Shown in pieces: positions 1,503 to 32,000 of a stretch of DNA of 32,000 bases. A program made the translations under genes and the position numbers. How positions within the stretch are numbered: the first letter of the stretch is position 1; each line of letters opens with the position of its first letter. The DNA comes from Cupriavidus necator (lineage in GTDB: Bacteria; Pseudomonadota; Gammaproteobacteria; Burkholderiales; Burkholderiaceae): assembly GCF_016127575.1 (NCBI RefSeq), contig NZ_CP066018.1, positions 3,180,001 through 3,212,000 of the forward strand, given 5' to 3'. The notes below the pieces were generated by a model. That model was not told the DNA's origin. It was given only the letters and a program-made list of their open reading frames with translations, and made no database searches.

Positions 1503-1841
1503 TCACTTGCGCCGCATTTGCATGACCGTAGGCTTGCCATCAACGTTGTCGAACGTCACGGATACCGCCTCGCCCTCCTTGAAATCCTTCAGCGATGCGC
1601 GATCCTTGACGGGGAACGCCATGGTCATCGGTCCCATGCCGAGGTTGGCGATCGGTCCGTGCCTGAGCGTGACCTTGCCGGCCTGCGCATCGATCTTCTT
1701 GATCTCGGCTGCCACGGGTTGCGGCGCCTGCTGCGCGGGTGCGGACGGCTTCATGTCCATGCCGTCCATCGATCCCGCTGCGAATGCGGCCGGCGTGGTG
1801 GCGAAAGCCAGCGCGAGGGCGAGCGTCTTGATGGAATTCAT
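1503..1841 (-). CDS. cusF: periplasmic Cu(I)/Ag(I) chaperone CusF
   Basis: 112 aa. Signal peptide [21 protein letters not shown], Met-rich GSMDGMDMK, and CusF core [18 protein letters not shown]. The ATG at 1839-1841 overlaps the cusA stop as ATGA (1838-1841). The track extension to 2021 lies inside cusA and is rejected. Confidence 0.9.
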
Positions 1842-4800
1842 AGTGGTTCCTTCTGAAGTGAGGGGTGTACGGAAACTGGTTGAGGTCTGGTCTGGCGCCG
1901 GCGCATCAGCAAATACACCGCCGGCACCACGAAGAGCGAAAGCAATGGCGCGGTGAGCATGCCGCCCACCATCGGCGCGGCAATGCGCTGCATGACCTCG
2001 GAGCCGGTGCCATGCGACCACATGATCGGCACCAGGCCGGCAAGGATGACGGCGACGGTCATTGCCTTGGGGCGCACGCGCAGCACCGCGCCTTCCTGGA
2101 TGGCCTCAAGCAGCGCGGACAGGCTGGCATCGCCCTGGTTCGCGCGCGCGGTCCATGCCTGCTTCAGGTAGAGCAGCATGATCACGCCGAATTCCGCCGC
2201 CACGCCCGCCAGCGCGATGAAGCCGACCACGCCGGCAACCGACAGGTTGTAGCCCAGCAGGTAGAGCAGCCAGAAGCCGCCGATCAGCGCCAGCGGCAGC
2301 GTGCCCATGATGAGCAGGGCTTCATCGAGACGGCCGAACACCAGGTACAGCAGCACGAAGATGATCAGCAGCGTGAACGGCACTACCACCTTCAGCTTTG
2401 CGGCGGCCCGCTCCAGGTATTCGAACTGCCCCGACCAGCTCAGCGAATAGCCAGCCGGCATCGGCACCGCTTTCGCAACGGCGGCCTGCATATCCCGGAC
2501 GGCCGAGCGCAGGTCACGCCCGCGGATGTCGACATACACCCAGCCCGACAGTCGCGCATTTTCGCTGCGCAGCATCGGCGCTCCCTGCACCACCTGGATG
2601 CGCGCCAGGTCGGACAGCACGATCTGCTGGCCCTTGTCCGTGACGATGGGCAGGCTGCGCAGTTGCTCCACCGAGTCGCGGTAGTCGCGCGGGTAGCGTA
2701 CGTTGATAGGGAAGCGCGCCAGCCCGTCGACGACCTCGCCCACATTGTCGCCGCCGATGGCCGACGATACCACGCTCTGCACATCCGCGATGTTCAGCCC
2801 GTAGCGGCCCGCCGCCACGCGATTGATGTCGATATCGACATAGCGCCCGCCGCTCAGCCGCTCGGCCAGTGCCGACGTCACCCCCGGCACTGTCCTGACG
2901 GCTTCCTCGATGCGCGTTGCCAGGCGATCGATCTCCTTCAGGTCCGCGCCCGCCACCTTGATGCCGACCGGGCTCTTGATGCCGGTGGCAAGCATGTCGA
3001 TGCGGTTGCGGATCGGCGGCACCCAGATGTTGGACAGGCCCGGCACCTTGACCACGCGATCGAGCTCTTCCACCAGCTTGTCGGTGGTCATGCCGGCACG
3101 CCACTGGTCGCGCGGCTTGAACTGGATGGTGGTCTCGAACATCTCGAGGGGCGCCGGATCGGTCGCGGTATCGGCGCGGCCGGCCTTGCCGAATACGGTC
3201 GCCACCTCGGGCACGGTCCTGATCAGGCGGTCGGTCTGTTGCAGCAGCTGCGCCGCCTTGCCGGCGGAAAGGCCTGGCAATGCCGACGGCATATAGAGCA
3301 GGTCGCCCTCGTCGAGCGGCGGCATGAATTCGGCGCCGGTACGCAGCATCGGCCACGCCGTCGCGGCCAGCAGCACCGCGGCGACCGCAAGGGTGGTCTT
3401 CGGGTAGGCCAGCACCCGTGCCAGCACCGGCCGATAGGCGCGGATCAGCCATCGGTTCAAGGGGTTGGACTGCTCCGAAGGAATCCTGCCGCGGATCATG
3501 TAGCCCATCAGCACCGGCACCAGCGTCACCGACAGGCCCGCCGCCGCGGCCATGGAATAGGTCTTGGTAAAGGCCAGCGGCGAGAACAGCCGGCCCTCCT
3601 GCGCCTCCAGCGTAAAGACCGGGATAAACGACAGCGTGATGATCAGCAGCGAGAAGAACAGCGCGGGCCCGACCTCGGTGGCGGCCCGGCCGATCACGCC
3701 CCAGCGCTCGTTCCCTGCCAGCTCCCGGCCGGGGTTCTCGGCATGCCAGTGTTCCAGCTGCTTGTGCGCGTTCTCGATCATCACGACCGCGGCATCGACC
3801 ATGGCGCCAATGGCAATGGCAATGCCGCCCAGCGACATGATGTTGGCATTGATGCCCTGGTAGCGCATCACCAAAAAGGCGGCCAGCACGCCCAGCGGCA
3901 GCGACACGATCGCCACCAGCGCGGAACGCAGGTGGAACAGGAACAGCAGGCACACCAGCGCGACCACGGCGAACTCTTCGGCCAGCTTGTGTGTCAGGTT
4001 TTCCACCGCGCGCTTGATCAGCGCGGAGCGGTCGTAGGTGGTGACGATCTGCACACCGGCAGGCAGGCTCTTCTGCAGCGTGGCTAGCTTCGCCTTGACC
4101 GCCTCGATGGTTTCCAGCGCGTTCTTGCCTGAGCGCATCACGATCACGCCGCCGGCAACCTCGCCCTGGCCGTCAAGTTCGGCGATGCCGCGCCGCATCT
4201 CCGGGCCGAGCTGGACGATGGCGACATCGCCCAGCCGCACAGGAATGCCGGCATCGCTGGTCACCAGCGGAATCTGCCGGAAATCGTCGAGCGTCTTCAG
4301 GTAGCCGCTGGCGCGCACCATATACTCTGCCTCGCCCATTTCCAGCACCGACCCGCCGGCCTCCTGGTTGGCGCCCCTGAGCGCCGCCAGCACCTTGCCC
4401 TGCGACAGGTTGTAGGCGCGCATCCGGTCCGGCAGCAGCACCACCTGGTACTGCTTCACCATGCCGCCCAGCGAAGCGACCTCGGCCACATTGGGCAGCG
4501 ATTTCAGTTCGAAGCGCAGGAACCAGTCCTGCATTGCGCGCAACTGGCCGAGGTCATGCTGGCCGGTCTTGTCCACCAGCGCGTACTCGTAGATCCAGCC
4601 GACGCCGGTGGCATCCGGCCCCAGCGCCGGCCTGGCCGCGGCAGGCAGGCGGGACTGCACCTGGTTCAGGTATTCCAGCACGCGCGAGCGCGCCCAGTAC
4701 AGGTCGGTGCCATCCTCGAACAGCACATAGACGAACGAATCGCCAAAGAAAGAGTAACCCCGGACCGTCCTGGCGCCGGGCACCGACAGCATGGTGGTGG

Positions 4801-5008
4801 TCAGCGGATACGTAACCTGGTTCTCGACGATCTGCGGCGCCTGGCCCGGGAAGGGCGTGCGGATGATCACTTGCACATCGGACAGGTCGGGGAGGGCGTC
4901 GAGCGGCGTGCTTCGCACCGCCCACAGGCCCCATGCGGTCAGCATCACCGTGGCCAGCAGGACCAGGATGCGGTGGCGGATCGAGGCCAGGATCAGGCGC
5001 GCGATCAT
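1838..5008 (-). CDS. cusA: CusA/SilA-type heavy-metal efflux RND permease
   Basis: 1056 aa from [25 protein letters not shown]4 motif [21 protein letters not shown] length and 12-TM layout. ATG at 5006-5008 overlaps the cusB stop (ATGA 5005-5008). Confidence 0.95.
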
Positions 5009-6549
5009 GGCCGGGCTCCCTGGGCGGTGCCGGCGGGCTCGACCGACGACAGCATGGCCGCGCCGTCGCGGTCCAGGTGGAAGCGGAAGCGGATGCGGTC
5101 GCCAGGCTTCAGTCCCTTGGGCAGGCCTGTCGGCGGCGCGGCGAAATCCATGGTCATCGCACCCCACTGTGCCGACGGGATGGGGCCATGCGAGATGGTC
5201 AGGCTCTCGCTGCCGTTCACGGCTTCGATGCGGCCTGTGCCTTCATGCTCGGCCGATGGTGCGGCAGGTGCGGAGGCCGCAAGCGGGGCGGACATGCGTT
5301 GCGCGCTGCCGCGCAGGCTGGCTTCCGAGTCGATCAGGAACTGGCCGGACGTGACCACTTTCTGTCCCGGCGCCAGTCCGTCCAGCACCTCGACCATGCC
5401 ATCGGCTTCGCGGCCGGTCTTGATCTCAGTGGCAACGAACCCTGCCTGGCCGGCATCGACCATGACGATACTGCGCTGGCCGGTGCGGATGACCGACTCC
5501 GACGGGATCAGCAACGCTTCCTTCTGCGCGCCACTGTCGAAGCCGACCGTGACAAACATGCCCGGCAGCAGGCGCCTGCCGGGGTTGGGCAGGATGATGC
5601 GGGCCTTGACGGTGCGGGTCGCCGGGTTGACGTCGGGAAGGATGGCGTCGACCTTGCCGGCAAGGGGGCTGGCCGTGCCGCCCTGCAGTACCGTGGCCGC
5701 CGCGCCGGGCCGGATGGTGCCGGCCTGGCCCTCTGGTACCTCGGCAATCACCCACACCTGGCTCAGGTCAGCCAGGCGGAACAGCGTCATGCCCGGCGAC
5801 ACGGTCATGCCCTCGCGCACCGCCACCTCGGTCACGAGGCCATCGACCGGGCTGGCGATGGCAACACCGGGCTGCGGCTTGCCGGATCTTTCGACCGCAC
5901 TGACCTGGCCCGGCGTCATGCCTGCCTGCAGCATGCGATTCCTGGCAGCACTGCGCAGGTCGTCCAGATGCTCGCTCGCTGCCATGCGTGACACGGCCAG
6001 GTATTCCTCTTGCGCCGCGACCCAGTCGGGCGAGTACAGGGTGACCAGCGCCTGTCCGCGCCGGACCGGGTCAAGGGTGGCCCGGACCGCGACGTGCTGC
6101 ACAAAGGCGTTGGTGCGCGCCTGGATGACCTGCACGCTGCGTTCGTCGATGGCGACATTGCCGGGCACCTGTAGCATCGCGGCCAGCCGTCCAGGCTTTG
6201 CCTCGGTGGTGCGAATGCCGAGGTTTTGCGCGACATGGCTGTCGACGGTGACACCGCTGCCGCTGCCATCGCCGTCCGCGTAGACCGGCACCAGTTGCAT
6301 CTCCATGAAGGGAGATTTGCCCGGCTTGTCGAAGCGCTGGCCCGGCACCATGGGATCGTGCCAGTACAGGATCTTCCTGCCGGTCTTCGGATCGATGTCG
6401 CCGGCCTTGAGCACGGTGGATTGCGCGCCAGCCGTGCTCGACGGTTGCGCAGTCTGTGTGCCGCGCGTGAACCCGAAGTGGTAAGCGCCGTAGAGGGCGA
6501 TGCCGGCGACGACCAGCCCGGCTGCTGCTGCAATGATGTGCTTCTTCAT
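5005..6549 (-). CDS. cusB: CusB/SilB-type periplasmic adaptor with a fused C-terminal CusF-like domain
   Basis: 514 aa from [16 protein letters not shown], with GGAGG just upstream. N-terminal [29 protein letters not shown] motif. The last 81 aa (5005-5250) contain [18 protein letters not shown]. The start overlaps the cusC stop (ATGA 6546-6549). Confidence 0.9.
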
Positions 6550-7847
6550 TTTGCCTCCCTCACTGCGGCTTCGGCCTGGGCGGTAGGCAATGGCACCAGG
6601 TAGTTCAGGTCCGCCCACAGCTTCGCGGTCTTTGCCTCAAGCAGCAGGCGATCCATGGCGGTGTCGATGGCGCGATGGTTGGCTTCGGCGACCGCCGCCA
6701 AGGTGCCCGTGCTGGCGCGGTAGGCCGTCAGTGCCGCATCCGCCTGTGCCCGCGCGAGCGGCAAGGTCTTGTCGTCGTAGCGCCGCAGCCGGTCAAGGTT
6801 GCGCTGCAGCTCGGCCAGCCTGGCGCCGACCATGGCCTGGGTATTGCGCCGGACCATTTCCAGCCTGGCCCGCGCGTCATTGGCCTGCGCCAGCCGCGCA
6901 CTGATTTCGCGGTCCTGGCGGTTGCCCCGGTCCCACGGCAATGGGAAGCTGACATTGAGCGAGCCCATGTTCGAGTAGGCCGAGCCGCGCTGGCTGTACA
7001 TCAGCTCGACCGTCACGTCCGGCTTGCGGGCTTCCGTTGCCACCTGGATCTCCGATTCGGCCAGCGCCACGTCGCGCTGCGCAGCCGACAGTTCGGGCAC
7101 GGCCTCGAACTCGCCCCTGGCGAGTTGCCGGGCGCCCGGCGGCACTTCAAGCGGTGGCCGCGCCGACAGCGGGCGCCGCGCAGCGGCGCCGACCCAGCGC
7201 TCCAGGTTCAGCGTGGCCGTTGCCAGCGCGGCGCGGTTCTCGTCCTCGCGGTCGTGCAGCTTCTGGATTTCCAGCTCCATCGCCAGTACCTCCGCACGCG
7301 AGCCGCGCCCGCCGCGGTAGGCCGCGGTGGCGGCCTGCAGCGCCAGTTCAAGCGGATGGCCGTGATGGCCGAGCAGCACGCCGGCCTGCTCCGCATACCA
7401 CCGGTCGAGCCAGGCATTGACCGCATTGCGCTGCACGCCTGCCAGCCCCACTGTGCGCTGCGCGTCGGCAGCGGCGGCTTCGGCTTCGAAGCGCGCGGCC
7501 CTGGCGCGGCGCTTGTCCGCGCGCGTGAATTCCTGCATCACCGAGATCGAGCGCATGGTCATGGAATCCCGGCTCAGCGAGAACGCGTCCGAGCCGTTGA
7601 CCGGCACGTTGTTGACGCCGAGCTTGAGCACGGGATCCGGCAGGCGGCCGGCGGCGACGGCCATTTGCCCGGCGGCCTCCACGGCGCCGCGCGACGATTC
7701 GGCGTCGCCGGCATGGGCGCTCGCGATCGCGACGGCTTCCTCAAGGGAGAGGGAAGGGGCGGATTGCCCGGGCGCGCCTTGCGGCGCAGCCAGGCCGATT
7801 GCGGGCGCGCTGAGCAGCGCCACGGACAGGTGACGTAGAAAAAGCAT
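6546..7847 (-). CDS. cusC: outer-membrane efflux factor (CusC/CzcC-like, TolC family)
   Basis: 433 aa from MLFLRHLSVALLSAPAIGLAAP, with GGAGG (revcomp of 7852-7856) upstream. Typical OMF coiled-coil repeats. No lipobox cysteine in the signal peptide. Confidence 0.88.
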   Translation of the reverse strand: MLFLRHLSVALLSAPAIGLAAPQGAPGQSAPSLSLEEAVAIASAHAGDAESSRGAVEAAGQMAVAAGRLPDPVLKLGVNNVPVNGSDAFSLSRDSMTMRSISVMQEFTRADKRRARAARFEAEAAAADAQRTVGLAGVQRNAVNAWLDRWYAEQAGVLLGHHGHPLELALQAATAAYRGGRGSRAEVLAMELEIQKLHDREDENRAALATATLNLERWVGAAARRPLSARPPLEVPPGARQLARGEFEAVPELSAAQRDVALAESEIQVATEARKPDVTVELMYSQRGSAYSNMGSLNVSFPLPWDRGNRQDREISARLAQANDARARLEMVRRNTQAMVGARLAELQRNLDRLRRYDDKTLPLARAQADAALTAYRASTGTLAAVAEANHRAIDTAMDRLLLEAKTAKLWADLNYLVPLPTAQAEAAVREAK

Positions 7848-7916
7848 AAAGCCTCCAGGGACGACGACTGCTGCCCGCATGGAAGCAGGCAGCACCAGGT
7901 GACGTCGAGCCGGAGG

Positions 7917-16686: not shown

Positions 16687-18960
16687 ATGAACAGGACAAG
16701 CAACGAACGCGATGCAACCGAGCCTGGCCGCCACAGCGCCGGTGCACATGGCTCGACTCAGGACCAGTCCGGTCCTGTTCATCACGAGCATGCGCATCAC
16801 CATGACCATGTTCATGAACCGGCTGGCACTGGAGCCGGGGCGGCGCAGCCCGCTGCCGAGGGAACGATTTATACCTGTCCCATGCACCCGGAGATCCGCC
16901 AGGATCATCCCGGCAACTGCCCCAAGTGCGGCATGGCGTTGGAACCGTTGTTGCCGGAACTGGATGAAGGCGAGAACCCCGAGCTGGTGGATTTCCGTCA
17001 CCGCTTCTGGTGGACGCTACCGCTCACCGGTGTGGTGTTCGTCATGGCCATGTTCGGGCATCGTCTTGGCTGGATGGAGGTGTCGACCCAGAGCTGGGTC
17101 GAGCTTGCGCTGGCGACGCCTGTGGTGCTGTGGGCAGGCTGGCCGTTCTTTGTGCGGTGTTTCCACTCGATCGTCAACCGTAGTCCGAACATGTGGACGC
17201 TGATCGGAATCGGCACCGGTGCGGCCTATGTCTACAGCGTCATTGCGACCGTCATACCTGGCGCATTTCCGCAGGTGTTCGCCGAGCATGGCCGTATCGG
17301 TGCCTACTTCGAGGCAGCGGCGGTGATCATTTCCCTCACGCTGCTGGGTCAGTTGCTTGAACTCAAGGCCCGCTCCCAGACTTCCGCCGCCATCAAGTCG
17401 CTGCTGGGACTGGCGCCCAAGACGGCGCGGCGTATCGGTCCCGACGGCGCCGAAGAGGACGTGCCGCTCGCCCATGTCCACGTGGGCGACCTGCTGCGCG
17501 TGCGGCCCGGCGAGAAGGTGCCGGTCGATGGCGTGGTAACGGAAGGCACCAGCGCGGTCGACGAATCGATGATCACTGGCGAGCCCATTCCGACCACCAA
17601 GCGCGTCGGCGACCGCGTCATCGGCGCCACGATGAACACTTCGGGCAGCCTTGTCATCCAATCCGAAAAGGTCGGCTCCCAGACCGTGCTGTCCCAGATT
17701 GTCCAGATGGTGGCGCAAGCGCAGCGATCGAAGGCACCGATGCAGCGGATGGCCGACCAGGTTGCCGGCGTCTTCGTCGTCGGTGTCATCGGCATTGCGG
17801 TGCTGACCTTTGTCGCGTGGGGACTCTTCGGCCCCGAGCCGAGCTGGGTGTTCGGACTGATCAATGCCGTCGCGGTGCTGATCATCGCATGTCCGTGCGC
17901 GCTGGGTCTCGCCACGCCGATGTCCATCATGGTTGCAAGCGGGAAGGGCGCTTCCAGCGGCGTGCTGTTCCGCGACGCCGCTGCAATCGAGAACCTGCGC
18001 AAGGTCGATACCCTGATTGTCGACAAGACCGGGACGCTTACCGAGGGTCGGCCGGCTTTTGAGCGCGCGATCGGCACCAATGGCTATGCCGAGGAGGACA
18101 TGCTGCGGTTAGCTGCCAGCCTGGATCAGGGCAGCGAGCATCCCCTGGCTGCCGCGATTGTTGCAGCAGCCCGTGAGCGCGGCCTGCAGTTGGAAAAGCC
18201 GGAGGGCTTCGAGTCGAGCTCCGGGATTGGGGTAAGAGGCAAGTTGGGAGGCAGCAAGGTCGCGATCGGGAATACTGCGCTCATGGAAGCCGAAGGCGTT
18301 CCCATCGATCCGCTCGTGGCGCAGGCCGATGAGCTGCGGGCGCAAGGCGCCAGCGTGATGTATCTTGCCGTCGATGGCAAGCTTGCTGGCCTGCTCGCCG
18401 TTTCGGATCCGGTCAAGGCCACCACGCCGGAGGCGCTGGCGCATCTCAGGGGAGAAGGTATCCGTGTCGTGATGGCGACCGGCGACGGGATTGCGACGGC
18501 GAAGGCGGTGGCCGGGAAACTTGGCGTTGACGAGTTCCACGGCGAGGTGAAGCCGGCGGACAAGCTTGAACTTGTCAGTTCGCTGCAACAGGCAGGCGCG
18601 GTGGTGGCGATGGCGGGCGACGGCATTAACGATGCGCCGGCGCTGGCGAAGGCCGACGTCGGTATTGCCATGGGCACGGGCACTGATGTCGCGATGAACA
18701 GCGCTCAGGTCACGCTGGTCAAGGGGGATTTGCGCGGGATTGCCCGTGCCCGGAAACTCTCGCAAGCGACCATTCGAAACATGAAGCAGAACCTCGGTTT
18801 TGCGTTCGTTTATAACGCATTGGGCGTTCCGCTGGCGGCGGGCGTTCTGTATCCAATGACAGGCCTGTTGTTGTCGCCCATGATTGCGGCGCTGGCGATG
18901 AGCCTGAGTTCTGCCTCGGTCATTACCAATGCGTTGCGGCTCAGGAAGGCTGCGACGTGA
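16687..18960 (+). CDS. Cu(I)/Ag(I)-exporting P1B-type ATPase (CopA/SilP-like)
   Basis: 757 aa. CPC in TM6 ([12 protein letters not shown]), [15 protein letters not shown], and [11 protein letters not shown]...MSLSS. The N-terminus is His-rich ([12 protein letters not shown]) and carries [22 protein letters not shown] in place of a CxxC HMA domain. Confidence 0.93.
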
Positions 18961-23999: not shown

Positions 24000-25418
24000 T
24001 CAGGCCGCCGCGGGGCGCGGCAGCGGCCGTGCCGGCGCGGGTGCGGCTTGCGCCGGCTCGCTGACCGGCAGTGTCATGCCGATCCGGATCGCGTCCGCCT
24101 GCACCTGCGCGAACACGCTGCCGCCGTGCATGGTGGCGATTGCCTTGACGATGGCCAGCCCCAGTCCGTGGTTCTGCCGGCTGTCGCTGCGCGCGGCGTC
24201 GGCGCGGTAGAAGCGATCGAACAGCCGCTCGGGCCGGATCGTGTGCAGGCGATCGGATTCATTGCGCACGGCGATGGTCAGCGTGTCCGCCGATTGCGCG
24301 ATCGTGACCGTCACCGGCCGCCCGGGCCGGCCGTGCTGCAGGGCGTTGCTCATCAGGTTGGTCAGCGCGCGCTGCAGCAGCGAGACGTTGACGCGCACGC
24401 GTGCATCGCCGGTCACGTGCAGCGTGGCGCCGGCTTCCTCGAACAGCATGTCGAGGAAGTCCGCGCTGCGCCGGACTTCCTGGGCGACCGAGACCTCGAC
24501 CAGGTCGCGCGCCAGCGCCCCGCGGTCGGACTGCGCCACGAACAGCATGTCGATCACGATGCGGCTCAGGCGCTCCAGGTCTTCCAGGTTGGACTGCAGG
24601 ATCTCTTCAAGCTGTTCGGTGCTGCGCGGGCGCGACAGCGCCACCTGGGTCTGGCCGATGACATTGCCCAGCGGCGTGCGCAGTTCGTGCGCGACGTCGG
24701 CATTGAAGGCGGATAGCTGCTGGTAGGCGTGCTCGAGCTTGTCGAGCGCGCCGTTGAAGGCATGCACCAGGCCGCCCAGCTCGGCGGGCAGGTCGGCGTC
24801 GGGCAGGTGCTCCAGCTGCTTGGGGTCGAGCGCGCCGGCATGTTGCGACAGGCGCTCGATCGGCGCCAGGCCGGACTTGGCAATGCGCCAGCCAAGCAGG
24901 CTCACCGCGATCACGCCGAGCACCGACGACATCACCAGGGCGATGCCAAGCGTGCGGCTGGTCTCGAAGAATGCCGCCTGGTCCACCGCGACCGCGAGCG
25001 CCACCTCGGGGCGATCATTCAGCGCCGGGATGCGGCGCTTCAGCATCAGGAAGCGGTGGTCGCCGAACTCCACCGCCCACACGTCGGGTGCGCGCGGGCT
25101 GGTGTCGGCCTCGCGCGGGAAGGGCTCGCCGTAGTCGAAGCGGCGGTCGGTACTTTCGACAAAGTAGCGCACGCTGTGATCGGCCGGCGTCAGGGTGCGC
25201 AGCATGGCGGCAAAGTGCTCCCATTGCTTTTCGGTGCCCAGGCCCGCGGCCTTGGTGCCGGCCAGGTCGAAGCGGGCGCGGATCTCTCCGAGCTGGCGCT
25301 TTTCCAGTTCCACGCACTGCACGCGGTACAGCACCATGCCGGTGACGGTGAAGACCAGGGCTGCCGCCAGCCCGAACATGGCGGCCAGCCGCGCCGCGAT
25401 CGAGCGTTGCCGGTTCAT
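24000..25418 (-). CDS. heavy-metal-family sensor histidine kinase (CusS/CopS/CzcS class)
   Basis: 472 aa. Two TM segments flank a periplasmic domain of about 130 aa. H-box FNADVAHELRTPLGNVIGQTQVALS. C-terminus FDRFYRADAARSDSRQNHGLGLAIVKAIATMHGG. The start overlaps the regulator stop (ATGA 25415-25418). Confidence 0.92.
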   Translation of the reverse strand: MNRQRSIAARLAAMFGLAAALVFTVTGMVLYRVQCVELEKRQLGEIRARFDLAGTKAAGLGTEKQWEHFAAMLRTLTPADHSVRYFVESTDRRFDYGEPFPREADTSPRAPDVWAVEFGDHRFLMLKRRIPALNDRPEVALAVAVDQAAFFETSRTLGIALVMSSVLGVIAVSLLGWRIAKSGLAPIERLSQHAGALDPKQLEHLPDADLPAELGGLVHAFNGALDKLEHAYQQLSAFNADVAHELRTPLGNVIGQTQVALSRPRSTEQLEEILQSNLEDLERLSRIVIDMLFVAQSDRGALARDLVEVSVAQEVRRSADFLDMLFEEAGATLHVTGDARVRVNVSLLQRALTNLMSNALQHGRPGRPVTVTIAQSADTLTIAVRNESDRLHTIRPERLFDRFYRADAARSDSRQNHGLGLAIVKAIATMHGGSVFAQVQADAIRIGMTLPVSEPAQAAPAPARPLPRPAAA

Positions 25419-26098
25419 GCGCTCAATCCGTCGCGGTGCTCCAGCACGTAACCCATGCCGCGGATGGTATGCAGCAGCTTGGCTTCGCCGGGCCAGTCCA
25501 GCTTGGCGCGCAAACGCTTGACCGCAACTTCGACCACGTTGGTGTTGCAGTCGAACGAGATGTCCCAGACCAGTTCCGTGATCGCGGTCTTGGACACGAT
25601 CTGCGCCTGCCGCCTGGCCAGCACCGACAACAGCGTGAATTCGCGTGCGCTCAGTTCCAGGCGCCGCGTGCCGCGCGTGGCGCGCCGCGACAGCAGGTCG
25701 ATGCGCAGATCGCCCACGGTCAGCTGCGACGGCTCAGTCTGCCGGCCGCGCCGCGTCAGCACGTTGAGCCGCGCCAGCAGCTCCAGAAAAGAGAAGGGCT
25801 TGGACAGGTAGTCGTCGGCGCCGGCATCGAAGGCATTGAGGCGGTCATCCAGGTCGTCGCGCGCGGTCAGCATCAGCACCGGGGTCTGCTGCTCGCGGCG
25901 CAGGGACTTCAGCACCGAGACGCCATCCAGCGCGGGCAGCATCACGTCGAGCACGATCGCGTCGTAGGGCTCGGTACAGGCCAGGTGCAGGCCGTCCACG
26001 CCGTTGTGCGCGGTATCGACTACGTAGCCATTCTCGGACAGGCCGCGGCGCAGGTAATCGACCGTCTTGATCTCATCTTCGACCAGCAAGAGTTTCAT
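25415..26098 (-). CDS. heavy-metal-family OmpR-type response regulator (CusR/CopR class)
   Basis: 227 aa. MKLLLVEDEIKTVDYLRRGL, phospho-acceptor context IVLDVMLP, and a winged-helix C-terminus. Colinear with E. coli CusR as I recall it. Confidence 0.93.
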   Translation of the reverse strand: MKLLLVEDEIKTVDYLRRGLSENGYVVDTAHNGVDGLHLACTEPYDAIVLDVMLPALDGVSVLKSLRREQQTPVLMLTARDDLDDRLNAFDAGADDYLSKPFSFLELLARLNVLTRRGRQTEPSQLTVGDLRIDLLSRRATRGTRRLELSAREFTLLSVLARRQAQIVSKTAITELVWDISFDCNTNVVEVAVKRLRAKLDWPGEAKLLHTIRGMGYVLEHRDGLSA

Positions 26099-26148
26099 TG
26101 GTCCAATCCTCGGAATCTAAACAATATAGAAGATGTGTGCGGCTCCAA

Positions 26149-26166
26149 CCTGTCAATCCTGTCAGT
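26149..26166. promoter_or_regulatory. tandem direct repeat CCTGTCAat-CCTGTCAgt (9-bp phase) upstream of the regulator operon
   Basis: CCTGTCA at 26149-26155 and again at 26158-26164. It lies 50 bp upstream of the regulator ATG. A minus-strand TATATT (26123-26128) sits between the repeat and the gene. A near-identical tandem occurs at 31096-31113. Confidence 0.5.
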
Positions 26167-26294
26167 TTCCCGGTGCCGCACCGAAGCTGTGCGGCCAGGC
26201 CTTGCGGCGCGCGCTCCGCAAGCATGACAGGAGCACGTGCCGCTTTTGTTCACACTGGTGGAAAAGACTGTTTGAAGACGCGCCGCCGCTCCAG

Positions 26295-26323
26295 CCTGAC
26301 GCAATTGTCAGCGTTGCGTCAGG
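26295..26323. promoter_or_regulatory. perfect 10-bp inverted repeat upstream of the small repeat-protein gene
   Basis: CCTGACGCAA (26295-26304) and TTGCGTCAGG (26314-26323) flank the spacer TTGTCAGCG, which contains another TGTCAG. TAGACT (26344-26349) is a possible -10. Confidence 0.4.
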
Positions 26324-26399
26324 GTGGCGTCGGCTGCGCTCCCTAGACTCCATGCGTGCCCGGCCGGGCCGGTTTTCCCACTTGCACAGGAGTCCTTCC

Positions 26400-26684
26400 A
26401 TGACCTCACCCAAGCGATCCCACCACCACGACAGCACAGGCCACCGTTCCGCGCTGCTGCGCGCCCTGATCCCGACCTTGCTGATGATGGTCGGCGCAAG
26501 CATTTCGTTGTCGGCCAAGGCTGCACCGCGGGCCGTTGACCCGTATACCGATGGCGCGGCCAGCGCGGCGACAGCCAAGGGCCGCTTCGATGTGTACAGC
26601 GACGGCGCCCGGGTGCGTGAACCGCGCGACACGTACACGGACGGCGCGCGCAGCGAGCCACGGCCCGCTGACGCGAACGGCTGA
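26400..26684 (+). CDS. small secreted protein with three D-x-Y-(T/S)-D-G-A repeats
   Basis: 94 aa. AGGAG lies 7 nt upstream of ATG 26400. Signal peptide LLRALIPTLLMMVGASISLSAKA-AP. The mature part of about 52 aa contains DPYTDGA, DVYSDGA and DTYTDGA. High GC at third codon positions. The longer track ORF from 26133 is rejected. Confidence 0.7.
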   Translation: MTSPKRSHHHDSTGHRSALLRALIPTLLMMVGASISLSAKAAPRAVDPYTDGAASAATAKGRFDVYSDGARVREPRDTYTDGARSEPRPADANG

Positions 26685-26715
26685 GCCCCGCAGCCCACCA
26701 CCACCCATGCAGCCA

Positions 26716-29700
26716 TCACGGCCTGCCATTAGGTGTGGCAGCGCCCGGCACCGCCGCCAGGGGCCGGCGATAGCGGGACAGCCGGTCCAGCGCGAGGTAG
26801 ACCACTGGCGTGGTGAAGAGCGTCAGCGCCTGGCTGAGCAGCAGGCCGCCTACCACGGCCACGCCCAGCGGCTGGCGCAGTTCCGCGCCGGTGCCGAAGC
26901 CCAGCATCAGCGGCACCGCGCCCAGCAATGCGGCCAGCGTGGTCATCATGATCGGGCGCAAGCGTGTGAGCGCCGCCTCGTAGATCGCCTGGCCGGCGCT
27001 GATGCCGCGGGTGCGCTGCGCCGCCAGCGCAAAATCGATCAGCAGGATGCCGTTCTTCTTGACGATGCCGATCAGCAGGATCACGCCGATCAGCGCCATG
27101 ATGGAAAAGTCGAACCCGCCCAGCCACAGCAGCGCGAGCGCGCCAATGGCCGCCGACGGCAGCGTGGACAGGATCGTCAGCGGATGCGCCAGGCTTTCGT
27201 AGAGCACGCCAAGGATGATGTAGACCGCCAGCAGCGCCGCCAGGATCAGCCAGGGCTGCCCGGCCAGGGCCTCCTGGAACGCCTGGGCCGAACCCAGGAA
27301 CGTGCCCTGGATGGCGGCCGGCATGCCGATGCGCTGCCGTACCTGCTCCAGCCGTGCCACCGCATCGCCCAGCGGTGCGCCCGGCGCGAGGTTGAAAGAC
27401 AGGTTGACCGCAGGGAGCATGCCGTGGTGCAGGATCGAGACCGGCCCGGCGCCCGGCGGCGCGATGCTCGCCACCGCGGCGAGCGGCACCATCTCGCCCG
27501 ACAGCGGGGATCGCAGGCGGAACGACTGCAGCGTCTCGATATGCCCGCGCCCGTCGTCGTCGACTTCAAGCACCACCTGATACTGGTTGGTGTCGGTCTG
27601 GAACTCGTTGATCTGGCGCTGCCCGAAGGCGTTGTAGAGGGCCTCGTCGATATCGGCTGAGGTGAGACCCAGCCGCGCTGCCGCCGCGCGGTCGATGCGC
27701 ATGCGGATGACATTGGCGCCGAGCTGCAGGTCGCTGGACAGGTCGCGGTAGAGCGGCTCGCCTTGCAGCGCGCTGGTGAGCCGCTGCGACCACGCATAGA
27801 GCTCGGCGGTTTCGTTGCCCTTGAGAACGTACTGGTACTGGGCCCGCGGCTGCCCCGCGCCGATGTTGATGTCCTGTGCTGCGCGCAGGTAGAGCCGGAT
27901 GCCCGGCACCGCGGCCAGCCTGGGCCGCAGGCGGTCGATCAGGCCGCTGGCCGAGACGTCGCGGTCGGAACGGTCGTTGAGCACGATCCAGAAGCGGCCG
28001 TTGGCCAGGGTCTGGCTGCCGCCGGTCATGCCGACCGAATGGGTGACCGTCAGCACGGCCGGGTCGGCAGCGATGATGTCGGCGAGGGCGCGATGCTTGG
28101 CGACCATGTCCGCATGGGGGATATCCGCCGCCGCCTGCGAGGTGCCCAGCACGAATGCGGTGTCCTGCAGCGGGAAGAAGCCCTTGGGGATCAGCACGAA
28201 GCCTGCCACGCTGGCGCATACCGTCAGGCCGAACACCGCCAGCACGCGCGCCTGGCGCCGCAGGCACCAGCGCAGCCCGGCTGCGTAGCGCTGCCCCAGC
28301 CACGTGGACAGGTCCGCCTGGCGCGCGCCCGTATCGTGATGCGCCTTGCGCATGGCGATGCCCGCCAGCGCGGGCGCCAGCGTCAGCGACACCACCACCG
28401 AGATCAGTATCGCCATCGCCGAGGTCAGCGCGAATTCGCGGAAGAGGCGGCCCACGACCCCGGACATGAACAGCAACGGGATAAACACCGCCACCAGCGA
28501 CAGGCCGATCGACACTACCGTGGGCCCGACCTCGGCCACGCCGCGGCGCGCGGCCTCGCGCAGGCCGAGTCCGGATTCGCGGTAGCGGTGGATGTTCTCC
28601 ACCACCACGATGGCGTCGTCGACGATAAAGCCGACCGCCACCACCACCGCCACCAGCGTGAGATTGTTCAGGCTGAACCCCATCAGGTACATCGCCGCGC
28701 AGGTGGCCGCCAGCGACACGCCCAGCACCGCCGTCACGATCAGCGTGGCCGACCACTCGCGCAGGAACAGCGCCATCACGCCGATCACCAGCATCACAGC
28801 GATCAGCAGGGTCAGCTCGACCTCGTGCAGCGAGGCGCGGATGGTGCGGGTACGGTCGTTCAGGATCTCCACGCGGACATCGGCGGGCAAGGCACGCCGC
28901 AGGGACGGCAGCGCTTCGTTGATGCGATCGAAGGTCTGCACGATGTTGGCGCCGGGCTGGCGCATGACGGCGAGCGCCACGCCCGGCCGGCCATTCGGAA
29001 AGCCATTGACGTAGGCGTCTTCAGGCCCGACCGCAACCCGCGCGACGTCTTTCAGGAATACCGGGCCGCCGTTGCGCCAGGCCACGACAAGCTCGCGATA
29101 GTCGTCCGGTTCCAGCAACTGCCCATTGGTCTCCAGCGTGCTGACGCGCGCCTCGCCGTACAGCGCGCCCTTGGGCGCGTTGCGGCTGGCCGCGCGGATT
29201 GCGCCGCGGACGTCGGCCAGCGTCAGGCCCACGCCGGCCAGCGCCGCCGGCGAGGCCTGCACACGGATCGCGGGGCGGCGCAGGCCGGTGGCGTTGACCA
29301 GCCCCACGCCCGGCAGCTGCCCGAGCTGGCGCACCAGCACGCGCTCGGCGTAGTCGCTGACTTCGGTCAGCGGCAGCGTGTCAGAGGTGATGCCAAGGAT
29401 CGCCACCGGACTGTCCGCGGGATTGACCTTGCGCCAGGTCGGCATTGCCGGCATGTCCGGCGGCAGCCGGCTGGTGGCGCGGTTGATGGCCGCCTGTACC
29501 TCTTGCACGGCGCTGTCGAGCCGGGTCTCCAGCGTGAACTGCAGCACGATGGTGACCGAGCCCAGCGCACTGGTCGAAGTCATCTCGGCAATGCCGGGGA
29601 TTGCGCTGAACTGCACTTCGAGCGGTGTGGCAACCGACGAGGCAATGGTGTCCGGGCTGGCGCCGGGCAGCAGGGCGTTGACCTGGATGGTTGGCACTTC

Positions 29701-29832
29701 GGCTTCGGGCAGCGGTGCCACCGGCAGCCGGAAATATGCGGCCGCACCCAGCAGCACCAGGGCGGCAGCCAGCAAGGCGGTGCCGATCGGGTGATCGATG
29801 CACCAGCCATATAGCGAAGAGGATGATTTCAC
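26716..29832 (-). CDS. RND efflux permease, hydrophobe/amphiphile (AcrB/MdtC-like) type
   Basis: 1038 aa from GTG 29830-29832 (VKSSSSLYGWCIDHPIGTALLAAALVLLG), 1 nt after the adaptor stop. TM4 GFIVDDAIVVVENIHR is the multidrug-type motif rather than the metal-type one. The track ORF extension to 30174 overlaps the adaptor gene and is rejected. Confidence 0.9.
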   Translation of the reverse strand: MKSSSSLYGWCIDHPIGTALLAAALVLLGAAAYFRLPVAPLPEAEVPTIQVNALLPGASPDTIASSVATPLEVQFSAIPGIAEMTSTSALGSVTIVLQFTLETRLDSAVQEVQAAINRATSRLPPDMPAMPTWRKVNPADSPVAILGITSDTLPLTEVSDYAERVLVRQLGQLPGVGLVNATGLRRPAIRVQASPAALAGVGLTLADVRGAIRAASRNAPKGALYGEARVSTLETNGQLLEPDDYRELVVAWRNGGPVFLKDVARVAVGPEDAYVNGFPNGRPGVALAVMRQPGANIVQTFDRINEALPSLRRALPADVRVEILNDRTRTIRASLHEVELTLLIAVMLVIGVMALFLREWSATLIVTAVLGVSLAATCAAMYLMGFSLNNLTLVAVVVAVGFIVDDAIVVVENIHRYRESGLGLREAARRGVAEVGPTVVSIGLSLVAVFIPLLFMSGVVGRLFREFALTSAMAILISVVVSLTLAPALAGIAMRKAHHDTGARQADLSTWLGQRYAAGLRWCLRRQARVLAVFGLTVCASVAGFVLIPKGFFPLQDTAFVLGTSQAAADIPHADMVAKHRALADIIAADPAVLTVTHSVGMTGGSQTLANGRFWIVLNDRSDRDVSASGLIDRLRPRLAAVPGIRLYLRAAQDINIGAGQPRAQYQYVLKGNETAELYAWSQRLTSALQGEPLYRDLSSDLQLGANVIRMRIDRAAAARLGLTSADIDEALYNAFGQRQINEFQTDTNQYQVVLEVDDDGRGHIETLQSFRLRSPLSGEMVPLAAVASIAPPGAGPVSILHHGMLPAVNLSFNLAPGAPLGDAVARLEQVRQRIGMPAAIQGTFLGSAQAFQEALAGQPWLILAALLAVYIILGVLYESLAHPLTILSTLPSAAIGALALLWLGGFDFSIMALIGVILLIGIVKKNGILLIDFALAAQRTRGISAGQAIYEAALTRLRPIMMTTLAALLGAVPLMLGFGTGAELRQPLGVAVVGGLLLSQALTLFTTPVVYLALDRLSRYRRPLAAVPGAATPNGRP

Positions 29833-29833
29833 T

Positions 29834-31039
29834 TCAGGCTCTCGGGGCCGGGGTTGCGATCGGCACGGAGACGCGGCTGCCGGCGCGCAGCCGGGACTGG
29901 CCGTCCGACACCAGCTGGTCACCGGCGGCGACGCCCTCCAGCACGACCTGCTGGCGGTCCTGGTAGCGCACGCTGACGGGCACGATCTCCACGGTGTTGT
30001 CCGGCCTGACGCGGAACACATAAGGCTGGTCCTGTTCGCCGTAGCGCAGCACCGCGGGCCGGGCCACCAGCGCATCGCGCAGCAGCCCGGTGTGCAGCCG
30101 CACCGCGACAAACTGGCCCGGCCACAGCTCGCCGGCGCGGTTGTCGAACTCGGCCTTGACCCGGACCGCGCCATTGCCGGTGCCCACGCGGCTGTCGATC
30201 ACCAGCAGGCGCCCCTGCGCCAGCGGCGCGCCGCCGTCGCGTGCATGCGCGTGCACGGCCGCGTTCGCGCCGCCGGCGCTCAGGTGTTGCAGCACCGGCA
30301 GCGCCGACTGCGGCATGGTGAATTCCACGGTGATGGGCGACAGCTGCGTGACGGTGAAGATCCCGTCGGCATCGCCGACCCGCACCAGGTTGCCTTCATC
30401 GACGTTGCGCAAGCCGATGCGCCCGGCGATGGGCGAGCGGATGCGGGTGTATGACAGGCGCACTTCCTCGGCGACGATAGCGGCGCGGTTGCCCTGCACG
30501 GTGGCGCGCAGCTGCTCGACGGTGGCGAGCTGCTGGTCCAGCGTCTGGCGCGGGATGGCATCGGCGGCGATCAGCGTGCGGTAGCGCCCAAGGTCGAGCT
30601 CGGCCGCGCGCAGCTGCGCCAGGTTCATCGCCAGCGTGGCGCGGGCCTGACCCAGTGCGGCCTGGATCGGCCGGTCATCGAGCGAGGCCAGCAGCTCGCC
30701 GCGGGCCACCTGCTGGCCTTCGCGCACATGCAGGCGCATCAGCTGGCCGTCGATCTGCGTGCGCACCACCACGTCGCGCAAGGGCCGGACGGTGCCGACG
30801 CTTTCCGCCTGGCGGGCGACGTCGCGTGCCTCCACGCGCGCCACGCGCACAGGAACAGGCGGTGGCGGCGGTGGGGGCGCATCGGACTGGCTGCGCCGGA
30901 CCAGGCCGAGCGTGCCGAGCGCGAGCACGCAGAGCGCCGCGGCTGCAAACCACAACCGTCGCGCATAAGGCCCGAGCGCCGCGAGCAGATAGGAGGTGAG
31001 GGAGAACGCAGGCATGGCAGTCGGACCCGCCGGATCCAC
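29834..31039 (-). CDS. RND periplasmic adaptor (MdtA-like membrane fusion protein)
   Basis: 401 aa from GTG 31039, or 393 aa from ATG 31015. N-terminal TM anchor, PPPPPPPVP linker, and lipoyl/barrel motifs (VRTQIDGQLMRLHVREGQQV, IRSPIAGRIGLRNVDEGNLV). Confidence 0.85.
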   Translation of the reverse strand: MDPAGPTAMPAFSLTSYLLAALGPYARRLWFAAAALCVLALGTLGLVRRSQSDAPPPPPPPVPVRVARVEARDVARQAESVGTVRPLRDVVVRTQIDGQLMRLHVREGQQVARGELLASLDDRPIQAALGQARATLAMNLAQLRAAELDLGRYRTLIAADAIPRQTLDQQLATVEQLRATVQGNRAAIVAEEVRLSYTRIRSPIAGRIGLRNVDEGNLVRVGDADGIFTVTQLSPITVEFTMPQSALPVLQHLSAGGANAAVHAHARDGGAPLAQGRLLVIDSRVGTGNGAVRVKAEFDNRAGELWPGQFVAVRLHTGLLRDALVARPAVLRYGEQDQPYVFRVRPDNTVEIVPVSVRYQDRQQVVLEGVAAGDQLVSDGQSRLRAGSRVSVPIATPAPRA

Positions 31040-31095
31040 AAGTCATTGGCATGCTGGTTTATAGCCAACGGAGGCGGTTGGAACGGTGACGCCAG

Positions 31096-31113
31096 CCTGT
31101 CAGGGCTGTCAGG
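31096..31113. promoter_or_regulatory. tandem direct repeat CCTGTCAgg-GCTGTCAgg (9-bp phase) upstream of the adaptor-RND operon
   Basis: CTGTCAGG at 31097-31104 and 31106-31113. It lies 56 bp upstream of GTG 31039. A minus-strand TATAAA (31058-31063) sits between the repeat and the gene. Same orientation and phase as 26149-26166. Confidence 0.5.
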
Positions 31114-31294
31114 AAGGCCGCGGCGCGCGCGCATGCGGTAGTCGCAGCGTGCTTGCTGACGGCTTTGCCAGTTGCCTGTCAGCACGCCGTTGGCTGCGGG
31201 CAGCTAAGCTACGCGGTTTATCGATTGGCAGGGCCGGGCCATCATGCCCGGAATCTGGCGCACGGCAGCGACGCTGCCAGTGAGGGCAGACGAT

Positions 31295-32000
31295 GTGGAG
31301 GACAGGTTGAGATCCAACCGCAACAAGCTGAACGCAGCCAGGGCCGTGCTGGGTGCCATGGCACTGACCGTGGCAGCGTGCGCCGGCATCGGCAGCGGCG
31401 GCTCGCTGCCCGCGCGCGCGAGCTTCAGCGATTACCGTAGCGAAACCCTCAGCCAGCTGCAGGCGCGGCGCCACTTCCAGCTTGCCGACAAGGCAGCCGA
31501 ACTCGCGTGGAACGGCCCCGGCGAATGGCTGCCGGCGCTGTCCCGTGCCGGAACGAAGCCGGAGAAGGGCATCCTGCTGATCCACGGCCTTGGCGATTCG
31601 CCGTGGTCGTTCCATGACCTCGCCCGGCAGCTCGCCGCGCAGGGCTTCCTGGTCAGGACCGTGCTGCTGCCCGGTCATGGCACCCGGCCGGAGGACCTGC
31701 TGGACGTGACGCTGGAAGACTGGCAGCGCGTGGTGCGGGAGCAGGCCGAGGTGCTGCGCCGCGATGTCGGGCAGGTCTACCTGGGAGGCTTCTCCACTGG
31801 CGCCAACCTGGCACTTGAATACGCCTACGCTCACCCGGACGTGGCGGGGCTGGTGCTGTTTTCACCGGCATTCCAGTCCAACAGCCGCTACGACTGGCTG
31901 ACCCCGCTGATTGGCTGGATCCGCCCATGGCTGCTGGAGCCGGACGGGCGCCGGCCGATGCAGAACGCCGTGCGCTACATGACGGTGCCAACCAACGGCT
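31295..32000 (+). CDS. alpha/beta-fold serine hydrolase, probable lipoprotein (5' part, runs off the window)
   Basis: Open frame with no stop from 31244 to the window end, so it is absent from the ORF track. GTG 31295 has GAGGG 8 nt upstream; ATG 31244 is an alternative start. Lipobox-like LTVAA-C. HGLGDSP oxyanion motif and GFSTGA nucleophile elbow. Confidence 0.7.
   Translation, partial: MEDRLRSNRNKLNAARAVLGAMALTVAACAGIGSGGSLPARASFSDYRSETLSQLQARRHFQLADKAAELAWNGPGEWLPALSRAGTKPEKGILLIHGLGDSPWSFHDLARQLAAQGFLVRTVLLPGHGTRPEDLLDVTLEDWQRVVREQAEVLRRDVGQVYLGGFSTGANLALEYAYAHPDVAGLVLFSPAFQSNSRYDWLTPLIGWIRPWLLEPDGRRPMQNAVRYMTVPTNG

Follow-up and report, generated by a model that had tools for sequence, protein, structure and literature searches.

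The five genes considered here occupy positions 24,000 to 31,113 of a 32,000-nucleotide stretch of the Cupriavidus necator chromosome (assembly GCF_016127575.1, contig NZ_CP066018.1, positions 3,180,001 to 3,212,000, forward strand), which we refer to as the window; exact matches of the encoded proteins to records CAJ93262-CAJ93265 place it on chromosome 1 of strain H16. From left to right they code for an MmnS-like sensor histidine kinase of the heavy-metal family (24000-25418, minus strand), an MmnR-like, OmpR-family response regulator of the same family (25415-26098, minus strand), a 94-residue small secreted peptide of the CopQ family with three Dx(Y/F)(T/S)DGA repeats (26400-26684, plus strand), a 1038-residue, MdtB/MuxB/MexN-like resistance-nodulation-division (RND) permease of the HAE1 type (26716-29832, minus strand), and an MdtA/MuxA/MexM-like periplasmic adaptor (29834-31039, minus strand). 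The peptide gene thus sits between the RND and regulator genes, divergent from the regulator gene and convergent with the RND gene, with 31 bp between the two stop codons. An earlier note on this DNA had treated the five genes as a functional neighbourhood tied together by a shared promoter motif; all of the sequence features it described are found where it placed them, and the view of the five genes as a functional neighbourhood holds up.

Membership of the heavy-metal two-component family was judged by whole-protein scores over the curated cut-offs of two models, and both proteins pass: the kinase scores 386.5 bits on TIGR01386 (cztS_silS_copS; cut-off 292.55) and the regulator 289.6 bits on TIGR01387 (cztR_silR_copR; cut-off 279.2), in agreement with their earlier assignment to the CusRS/CopRS/CzcRS class. 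Both fall under the curated cut-offs of the CusS/CusR, HprR, and BaeSR models; BaeSR itself is rejected by scores of 105-106 bits on the BaeS models (cut-offs 500-603) and 123.6 on BaeR (cut-off 380), and the kinase is not of the CusS type by model, reaching 219.5 on NF007345 against a cut-off of 423. Across 13 kinase homologues from Cupriavidus, Pseudomonas, Caulobacter, Sphingomonas, myxobacteria, and others, the periplasmic part (residues ~37-160) contains no invariant His, Cys, or Met; the invariant residues there are E45, R49, W66, L73, R84, R136, and P137. The low NF007345 score together with the lack of a conserved periplasmic His or Met does not fit a CusS-type Cu(I)/Ag(I) sensor, and the absence of invariant His, Cys, and Met argues weakly against CusS-like direct coordination of Cu or Ag by this kinase. 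Its signal is probably periplasmic or envelope stress, metal or other, rather than CusS-like Cu/Ag binding.

The earlier note had also typed the pump as a multidrug rather than a metal transporter, and we agree. The permease clearly passes Pfam ACR_tran (969.6 bits), and its top-scoring models are RND_permease_2 and MdtB/MuxB (NF007798, 1073.6 bits; cut-off 1584), with the MdtC group also among the best; neither of the two top models is matched at its cut-off. A heavy-metal efflux (HME) transporter would be recognised by a score over the cut-off of the CusA/CzcA model TIGR00914 and by DFG...D or A(I/V)G...single-D in the fourth transmembrane segment (TM4). The TIGR00914 score is 362.8 against a cut-off of 701.45; the RND gene encodes GFIVDDAIVVVENIHR, its TM4 segment is AVGFIVDDAIVVVENIHRYRE, and a search for the GxxxDDAIVxxEN-type TM4 signature of HAE1 found AVGFIVDDAIVVVEN present. 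The score and the DD signature in TM4 rule out an HME permease of the CusA/CzcA type and support a pump of the multidrug (HAE1) type. The adaptor scores 270.5 bits on NF008589 and 229.8 on TIGR01730, the latter over the cut-off. Its open reading frame begins at GTG 31039, and the resulting 401-residue form was not found in the protein collection; because the same gene is annotated at 393 residues in strain GA3-3, ATG 31015 is probably the true start. No outer-membrane factor (OMF) gene lies beside the pump: the gene 5′ of the adaptor gene, starting at ~31310 (plus strand), codes for a lipoprotein alpha/beta-hydrolase, and the sole OEP gene in the window (6546-7895) is 16 kb away in a separate cusCBA-like operon.

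Among 80 genomic loci retrieved with a kinase profile, 33 have adaptor, RND, regulator, and kinase genes in this order on one strand, with identities to the window proteins of 47-67% (RND), 63-68% (regulator), and 40-46% (kinase). The RND proteins are 61-67% identical in 26 loci (24 Pseudomonas, Steroidobacter, and a gammaproteobacterial metagenome-assembled genome, L004-L041 and L063; Archangium, L043), and 47-50% identical in seven (L017, L032, L034, L038, L042, L068, and L069) from Variovorax, Herbaspirillum, Bordetella, Curvibacter, and others. A 34th syntenic locus, in Pseudomonas aeruginosa (L086), lies between lasR/rsaL and fliL-fliR (fliLMOPQR), with products 57% (adaptor), 64-67% (RND), 66% (regulator), and 45% (kinase) identical to those of the window; from the PAO1 map, we take this locus to be PA1435-PA1438, mexM-mexN-mmnR-mmnS. 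The four genes other than the peptide gene are thus syntenic in 34 loci; all five occur together in only a few C. necator strains.

The MmnRS circuit is reported to control mexMN (Ranjitkar 2019, as cited in PMC11195947), MmnR clusters with CopR, CzcR, and IrlR (PMC11195947), and MexMN pairs with OprM, which is encoded elsewhere (PMC9779380). Both the collinear order and the homology that mark a MexMN-MmnRS-type locus are present in the window, with the operon interrupted by the peptide gene. The two loci share the one-strand order of adaptor, RND, regulator, and kinase genes, HAE1 pumps, two-component systems of the CopRS/CzcRS/IrlRS clade, and operons without an OMF gene. They differ in that the H16 operon is split by a 620-bp segment carrying a CopQ-family gene in the opposite orientation and separate promoters for the regulator and the peptide, whereas in Pseudomonas the RND and regulator genes are ~40 bp apart and no CopQ-like gene is present. 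Because of the MmnRS-MexMN-OprM precedent, a metal-family sensor beside an OMF-less multidrug-type pump is a described arrangement.

The peptide starts with a hydrophobic segment ending in AKA, which we called by eye as a signal peptide, and carries the repeats VDPYTDGA, FDVYSDGA, and RDTYTDGA; a conserved GGAG ribosome-binding site lies ahead of its ATG. It has no match in Pfam or NCBIfam. The GenBank and UniProt H16 records label it 'Hydroxyquinol 1,2-dioxygenase', with which its size and sequence are incompatible, and the label is corrected here as a misannotation. A collection of 5.8 billion proteins yielded 14 homologues, of which all those with a named organism are from Cupriavidus, and every one has a basic N-region, a hydrophobic segment to AKA, and three Dx(Y/F)(T/S)DGA repeats. 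A tblastn search against PLSDB matched 164 replicons, all from Ralstonia or Cupriavidus; the match on pMOL30 adjoins nccA and nreB and is therefore mmrQ, and MmrQ of pMOL30 is 39% identical to the peptide by BLASTP (E 2e-11). No CopQ-like gene was found in 80 non-Cupriavidus loci by tblastn or with a regular expression for the repeats.

Members of the CopQ, CzcJ, MmrQ, and MmmQ family have a signal sequence and three to four RDxxTDG repeats with defined spacers, are strongly induced by metals, and are confined to Cupriavidus and Ralstonia (Janssen et al. 2010, PMC2864759); there are 21 CopQ-family homologues in CH34, and the family has been called poorly characterised (PMC7563307). The H16 peptide resembles them in its signal sequence followed by three to four repeats of the form (R)Dxx(T/S)(D/E)GA with short spacers, in the restriction to these two genera, and in the tie to a heavy-metal two-component locus (czcRS...czcJ, czcSRL...mmmQ, and the cop cluster; PMC2864759); it differs in being paired with an MmnRS-like system rather than Czc or Cop. 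By these features, the peptide is placed in the CopQ/CzcJ/MmrQ family, and within that family it forms a subgroup of its own, of 14 homologues.

Two of the promoters in the block carry the 17-mers CTGACAGGATTGACAGG at 26165-26149 (minus strand), 50 nt before the regulator ATG, and CTGACAGCCCTGACAGG at 31112-31096 (minus strand), 56 nt before GTG 31039. No other exact site exists in the 32 kb; allowing up to two mismatches gives three matches against 0.16 expected, a number reached in none of 100 shuffles, the third match being the opposite-strand reading of the second site. The core TG[AT]CA-N4-TG[AT]CA likewise occurs in the window at the same two places only, and the box is absent from the upstream regions of the cus-like operon and of a P-type ATPase gene. 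The earlier description of a tandem direct repeat was thus accurate as to both sites and their positions, but the element is better read as a copper-box-type 6-4-6 arrangement, CTGNCA-N4-TGNCAG, because the heptamer CTGNCAG is palindromic by itself and relatives carry the inverted form CTGACAGnnCTGTCAG as well as CTGTCAGnnCTGTCAG or CTGACAGnnCTGACAG. This geometry is that of the Escherichia coli CusR/pcoE box, TGACAA-NN-TTGTCA (PMC11195947), and of the AgrR box. We accordingly score three candidate operators: box 1, CTGACAGGATTGACAG (26150-26165, minus strand), at the regulator promoter; box 2, CTGACGCAATTGTCAG (26296-26311, plus strand), a degenerate form at the peptide promoter; and box 3, CTGACAGCCCTGACAG (31097-31112, minus strand), at the pump promoter, which is the best box in the window with 12 of 12 positions.

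The boxes stand in a recurrent promoter layout. In a box-anchored alignment of loci from H16, P. aeruginosa, eight other Pseudomonas species, Variovorax, and Bordetella, the box is followed after 6 nt by GTCAnn or GACAGn and after a further 20-21 nt by TATAAA, TAGACT, or TAGAGT. At the H16 pump promoter, the proximal half-site is GTCACC (31090-31085, minus strand) and the candidate -10 element TATAAA (31063-31058, minus strand), and the spacing box-N6-GTCAnn-N21-TATAAA is identical in H16, P. aeruginosa, and the eight other Pseudomonas species; the P. aeruginosa mexM promoter reads CTGACAGGATTGTCAT-N6-GTCAGG-N21-TATAAA, its box being inverted where those of H16 are of the direct form (TGACA...TGACA). 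Variovorax and Bordetella have GACAGC and TAGAGT or TACAGT at the same spacing. The peptide promoter, with the proximal half-site GTCAGG (26318-26323, plus strand) and the candidate -10 element TAGACT (26344-26349, plus strand; invariant in the six-locus alignment of Cupriavidus), follows the layout box-N6-GTCAGG-N20-TAGACT and so agrees with the pump promoters of H16 and of other genera. At the regulator promoter, the candidate -10 element TATATT (26123-26128, minus strand) lies 21 nt downstream of box 1. No canonical sigma-70 -35/-10 promoter turned up in a scan of 25900-31400, a result that fits activator-dependent promoters. The proximal half-site occupies the -35 position, and from this placement where no sigma-70 promoter is seen we infer that a regulator of the OmpR/PhoB type acts here by class II activation.

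Could the repeated CTGACAG be chance or structural sequence, such as a -35 element or a hairpin, instead of an operator? TTGACA does lie within box 1, and TGACAG as a lone hexamer is no commoner in the window than expected (12 observed, 14.3 expected); yet the paired form is found at just two promoters in the window and is conserved across bacterial classes at fixed spacing, and we give this explanation hardly any weight. TTGACA of box 1 was rejected as a sigma-70 -35 element, as its 23-nt spacer to the -10 candidate is too long.

Comparison among relatives makes it very probable that the shared motif is the operator of the regulator, as the earlier note had supposed: phylogenetic footprinting shows it conserved in six Cupriavidus loci and upstream of orthologous pump operons in other genera. 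In the pump-operon loci, 22 of 33 matches at 11 or more of the 12 positions fall within 300 bp upstream of the adaptor gene, a region that makes up 10.2 kb of 660 kb (1.5%) over the 34 syntenic loci; in most of these loci, the counterpart of box 3 stands at the same position ahead of the adaptor or OMF gene. Within Cupriavidus, the stretch between the regulator and peptide genes measures 220-480 bp across the six loci and is divergent except for two invariant islands, one on the regulator side consisting of box 1 and a TATA element (TATAG/ATATAG), and one on the peptide side (26296-26349) of the form CTG(A/T)CGCAATTGTCAG-N6-G(T/A)CA...TAGACT. A conserved box 1 precedes the regulator gene in C. 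oxalaticus, C. respiraculi, MP-37, L085, L088, and L089. In C. respiraculi, the CopQ-like gene is displaced, lying 5 kb from the two-component system, and its promoter, CTGACCGCATTGTCAT-N6-GTCAGG-N20-TAGACT, has a box near-identical to box 2, followed by the same arrangement of half-site and -10 element. The idea of a regulon gains support from the presence of the element at each of the three promoters of the block, and the comparative evidence backs this predicted regulon.

Related boxes also occur beyond the pump-linked loci. In the enterobacterial loci of Pseudocitrobacter (L058) and Kluyvera (L059), where the kinases are 37% identical, the boxes CTGACAATGCTGTCAG and CTGACAGAATTGTCAG lie immediately 5′ of the regulator gene and 3′ of the kinase gene (L058:9203 and 12885; L059:9181 and 11421); in Bordetella petrii (L061; kinase 39% identical), a single box, CTGACAGGAATGTCAG (L061:4039), is found, upstream of the regulator gene only. 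This type of box is therefore not limited to pump-linked systems. The mmrQ promoter of pMOL30 (L001:3930-4000), ATGACCGGTTCGTAAT-N6-GTCATT-N21-TAGACT, contains another box in this same layout, which suggests that CopQ-family genes may each be wired to a different heavy-metal-type regulator.

We interpret the block as the H16 representative of a widespread cluster, consisting of an adaptor, an MdtB/C-like HAE1 RND permease, and a CopRS/CzcRS/CusRS-family two-component system, to which a divergent CopQ-family peptide gene is joined in a three-promoter regulon; we put the probability of this reading at about 0.72. The kinase-activated regulator would bind as a dimer to the 16-bp 6-4-6 boxes CTGNCA-N4-TGNCAG, with the extra half-site overlapping the place of the -35 element, for which these promoters lack a consensus, and would act as a class II activator at three promoters, those of its own gene (positive autoregulation), of the peptide gene, and of the pump operon. 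As its own OMF gene is missing, the H16 pump would have to borrow an OMF encoded elsewhere. The described examples of such a cluster are mexMN-mmnRS in P. aeruginosa and, more loosely, agrCBA/agrRS in C. metallidurans.

AgrRS of C. metallidurans is conceptually the closest precedent. It adjoins the HAE-type pump AgrCBA, and AgrR acts directly on its own promoter and on that of the CopQ-like prsQ2 (up 507-fold), from a 16-bp 6-4-6 operator, ATKACA-N4-TGTMAT, with an in-phase extra half-site forming a direct repeat, by type II activation; PrsQ1/2 and AgrR are needed for evolved silver resistance (PMC7380067), and AgrA has the TM4 features AVG...DD...EN (PMC10127602). Loss of the kinase in agrS mutants switches the AgrR regulon on. 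H16 shares with this system the genus, the heavy-metal-family two-component system beside an HAE-type RND pump, the TM4 features of AgrA, the 16-bp 6-4-6 box with its in-phase extra half-site in class II placement, and, as we propose, a regulator that activates itself and a CopQ-like small periplasmic protein. The differences are in the box (ATKACA-N4-TGTMAT in AgrRS, CTGNCA-N4-TGNCAG in H16), in the orientation of agrRS, reported as divergent from the pump genes where the H16 regulator-kinase pair is collinear with them, and in the position of prsQ2, which is not adjacent to agrRS where the H16 peptide gene adjoins the regulator gene. The AgrR box ATKACANNNNTGTMAT was not found at the H16 promoters, whose boxes have the 6-4-6 geometry and the conserved C/G in common with it, though not the ATTACA half-site. 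Since the box differs, and since the best 120 kinase matches (all at least 41% identical) include none from C. metallidurans, orthology with AgrRS is unlikely, and the window system is probably an AgrRS paralogue.

With these precedents, the suggestion of the earlier note that the combination matches no described system is not supported. On that view, the five genes would be an undescribed module, with a metal sensor in control of a non-metal pump and a novel repeat peptide, and in its favour the peptide is matched by no Pfam or NCBIfam model, our literature search found no paper on this exact C. necator locus, and a peptide gene between RND and regulator genes is seen in Cupriavidus only. Every component and pairwise link has a precedent, however, in MmnRS-MexMN, the CopQ/CzcJ/MmrQ family, or AgrRS-PrsQ2 beside AgrCBA, and the five-gene arrangement, confined to a few C. 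necator strains, is visibly degrading, so we consider such a module very improbable. The block is instead an MmnRS-MexMN-type cluster with a CopQ-family target that parallels AgrRS-PrsQ2, and not a new kind of system.

Two further systems invite comparison. BaeSR-mdtABCD-spy of Enterobacteria is, as generally described, a two-component system that drives an OMF-less MdtB/C-type pump and a small periplasmic stress protein, and it responds to envelope stress including metals; its likeness to the H16 block is a functional analogy only, as the two-component family is another and Spy is unrelated to CopQ. CusRS-cusCFBA of E. coli and the PcoR/CopR copper box share with H16 the two-component family and the geometry of the box (TGACAA-NN-TTGTCA compared with TGACAG-NN-YTG(A/T)CAG). 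They differ in that the H16 pump is not an HME (CusA-type) transporter and in that the H16 kinase, without conserved periplasmic His or Met, is under the CusS cut-off.

The loci within Cupriavidus bear on how far the pump belongs to the regulon. C. oxalaticus, MP-37, L085, and L088 have the divergent peptide gene and regulator-kinase pair with box 1, and no pump nearby. In strain GCA_977012025 (L089), where the RND protein is 94% identical, an adaptor-RND-OEP operon is followed by the peptide gene; the OEP gene (492 residues, L089:3348-4826) lies between the RND and peptide genes, and L089 has 1583 bp where H16 has 33 bp (26680-26716). Homology between the two breaks at 26714 and resumes at 26680, with the 1.5-kb OMF gene exactly missing from H16. 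The earlier note was thus correct that no OMF gene is adjacent, but because a relative with a 94% identical RND retains the OEP gene at this very place, the absence looks secondary, and we read it as a strain-level loss and not a design feature; in this respect H16 differs from MexMN-MmnRS. In L089, an ISL3-family-like transposase open reading frame (481 residues, L089:5840-7285) lies between box 1 and the regulator gene, and this insertion may leave the regulator gene no longer under the control of its autoregulatory operator. C. necator L091 and L092 (5030-7521 in each) have an internal deletion that fuses the adaptor gene to the RND gene and leaves a 327-residue adaptor and a 506-residue RND fragment, with the peptide gene and two-component system intact. 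The peptide and two-component system thus appear to be the conserved Cupriavidus core, and the pump looks dispensable in this lineage.

These losses lend themselves to another explanation, that the two-component system regulates only itself and the CopQ-like gene, the pump being a separately evolving and partly decayed neighbour whose box 3 is a relic or is served by another paralogue (CopR, CzcR, or AgrR-like). The pumpless Cupriavidus loci, the adaptor/RND deletion in L091 and L092, and the OMF gene present in L089 and missing from H16 all favour it. So does the behaviour of AgrCBA: agrCBA was not differentially expressed in NA4S although agrR was strongly up (PMC7380067), so adjacency to such a system does not by itself make a pump its target. 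In vitro, regulators of the heavy-metal family also bind one another's sites (PMC11195947), and the H16 boxes could thus serve another paralogue. Set against this are the H16 pump promoter itself, with a 12/12 box, half-site, and -10 element at the spacing of Pseudomonas mexM, the retention of the box wherever pump and two-component system are collinear (the seven distant loci considered below apart), and the control of mexMN by MmnRS as reported in PMC11195947. We judge the separate-pump explanation unlikely, and prefer the three-promoter regulon.

Besides the agrCBA result and the cross-binding, several observations count against the three-promoter regulon. The seven distant syntenic loci (RND 47-50% identical) have no box of at least 10/12 within 600 bp upstream of the adaptor gene; in three of the seven (both Variovorax and Bordetella sputigena), a box is found further upstream, and in Variovorax L034 and L042 it is perfect and lies ~1.7 kb upstream of the adaptor gene, with the OMF gene that heads the L034 operon starting 64 nt downstream of it. 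The permease falls slightly short of the subfamily cut-off of RND_permease_2 (1191.6 against 1250). Orthology with PA1435-38 is argued from synteny and 45-67% identity, not phylogeny, and we infer the pairing of regulator and box only from conservation and adjacency. The peptide allele of H16 and GA3-3 is 94 residues long compared with 111-118 in relatives (P0022, P0037-P0046), owing to an in-frame loss of 21 residues in the basic N-region that possibly reflects decay; with the lost OMF gene, this may mean that parts of the module are decaying rather than functional.

The segment missing from the H16/GA3-3 peptide includes 'HRRALL', which resembles a twin-arginine signal and reads HRSALL in H16. 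The export route or efficiency of the H16/GA3-3 peptide may differ from that of its relatives.

Two aspects may, taken together, not have been described before, a proposal that we advance tentatively and at somewhat less than even odds: an operator belonging to the MmnR subfamily, and, in Cupriavidus, a primary output that is the CopQ-family peptide and not the pump. The proposed operator may be CTGNCAG-N2-CTGNCAG with a half-site 6 nt downstream, starting 48-49 nt before the -10 element, which is an arrangement kept from Pseudomonas to Cupriavidus, Variovorax, and Bordetella. If this is true, the peptide and two-component system would form a self-contained periplasmic stress module parallel to AgrRS-PrsQ2, and CopQ-family promoters would have been retuned to paralogous regulators by box swaps, as the mmrQ promoter illustrates. 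The operator and the three-promoter regulon offer testable predictions for a poorly characterised two-component subfamily; in P. aeruginosa, mexMN is relevant to beta-lactam efflux. H16 would also provide a second, independent Cupriavidus case of a heavy-metal-type regulator wired to a CopQ-family peptide, strengthening the idea that the abundant CopQ-family peptides are dedicated outputs of heavy-metal-type systems.

The recognition-helix region of the regulator, TNVVEVA(V/I)KRLRAK, is common to the syntenic relatives. Regulators encoded beside HME-type RND genes in Burkholderia, Pandoraea, and Paraburkholderia (L045, L053, and L013) have the recognition helix NVVETAIKRLRAK where the pump-linked MmnR-like group has NVVEVA(I/V)KRLRAK, and this V/T difference may be linked to box specificity.

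An Rfam scan of the whole window at gathering thresholds found no RNA family, and the two terminator-like matches in 25900-31400 lie inside the RND gene and are at chance level. An inverted repeat, GCTGACAGGC...GCCGTCAGC (31155-31183, minus strand), lies between the hydrolase and adaptor genes, ~45 nt upstream of box 3; it holds another TGACAG and may be an extra binding site or a hairpin. Elsewhere in the window, the cusCBA-like operon (minus strand) is of the heavy-metal efflux type, with an RND gene at 1838-5167, a gene at 5005-6618 for a CusB-like adaptor with HMBD and a C-terminal CusF domain, and the OEP gene mentioned above; the P-type ATPase, encoded at 16687-18960 (plus strand), has a heavy-metal-binding domain.

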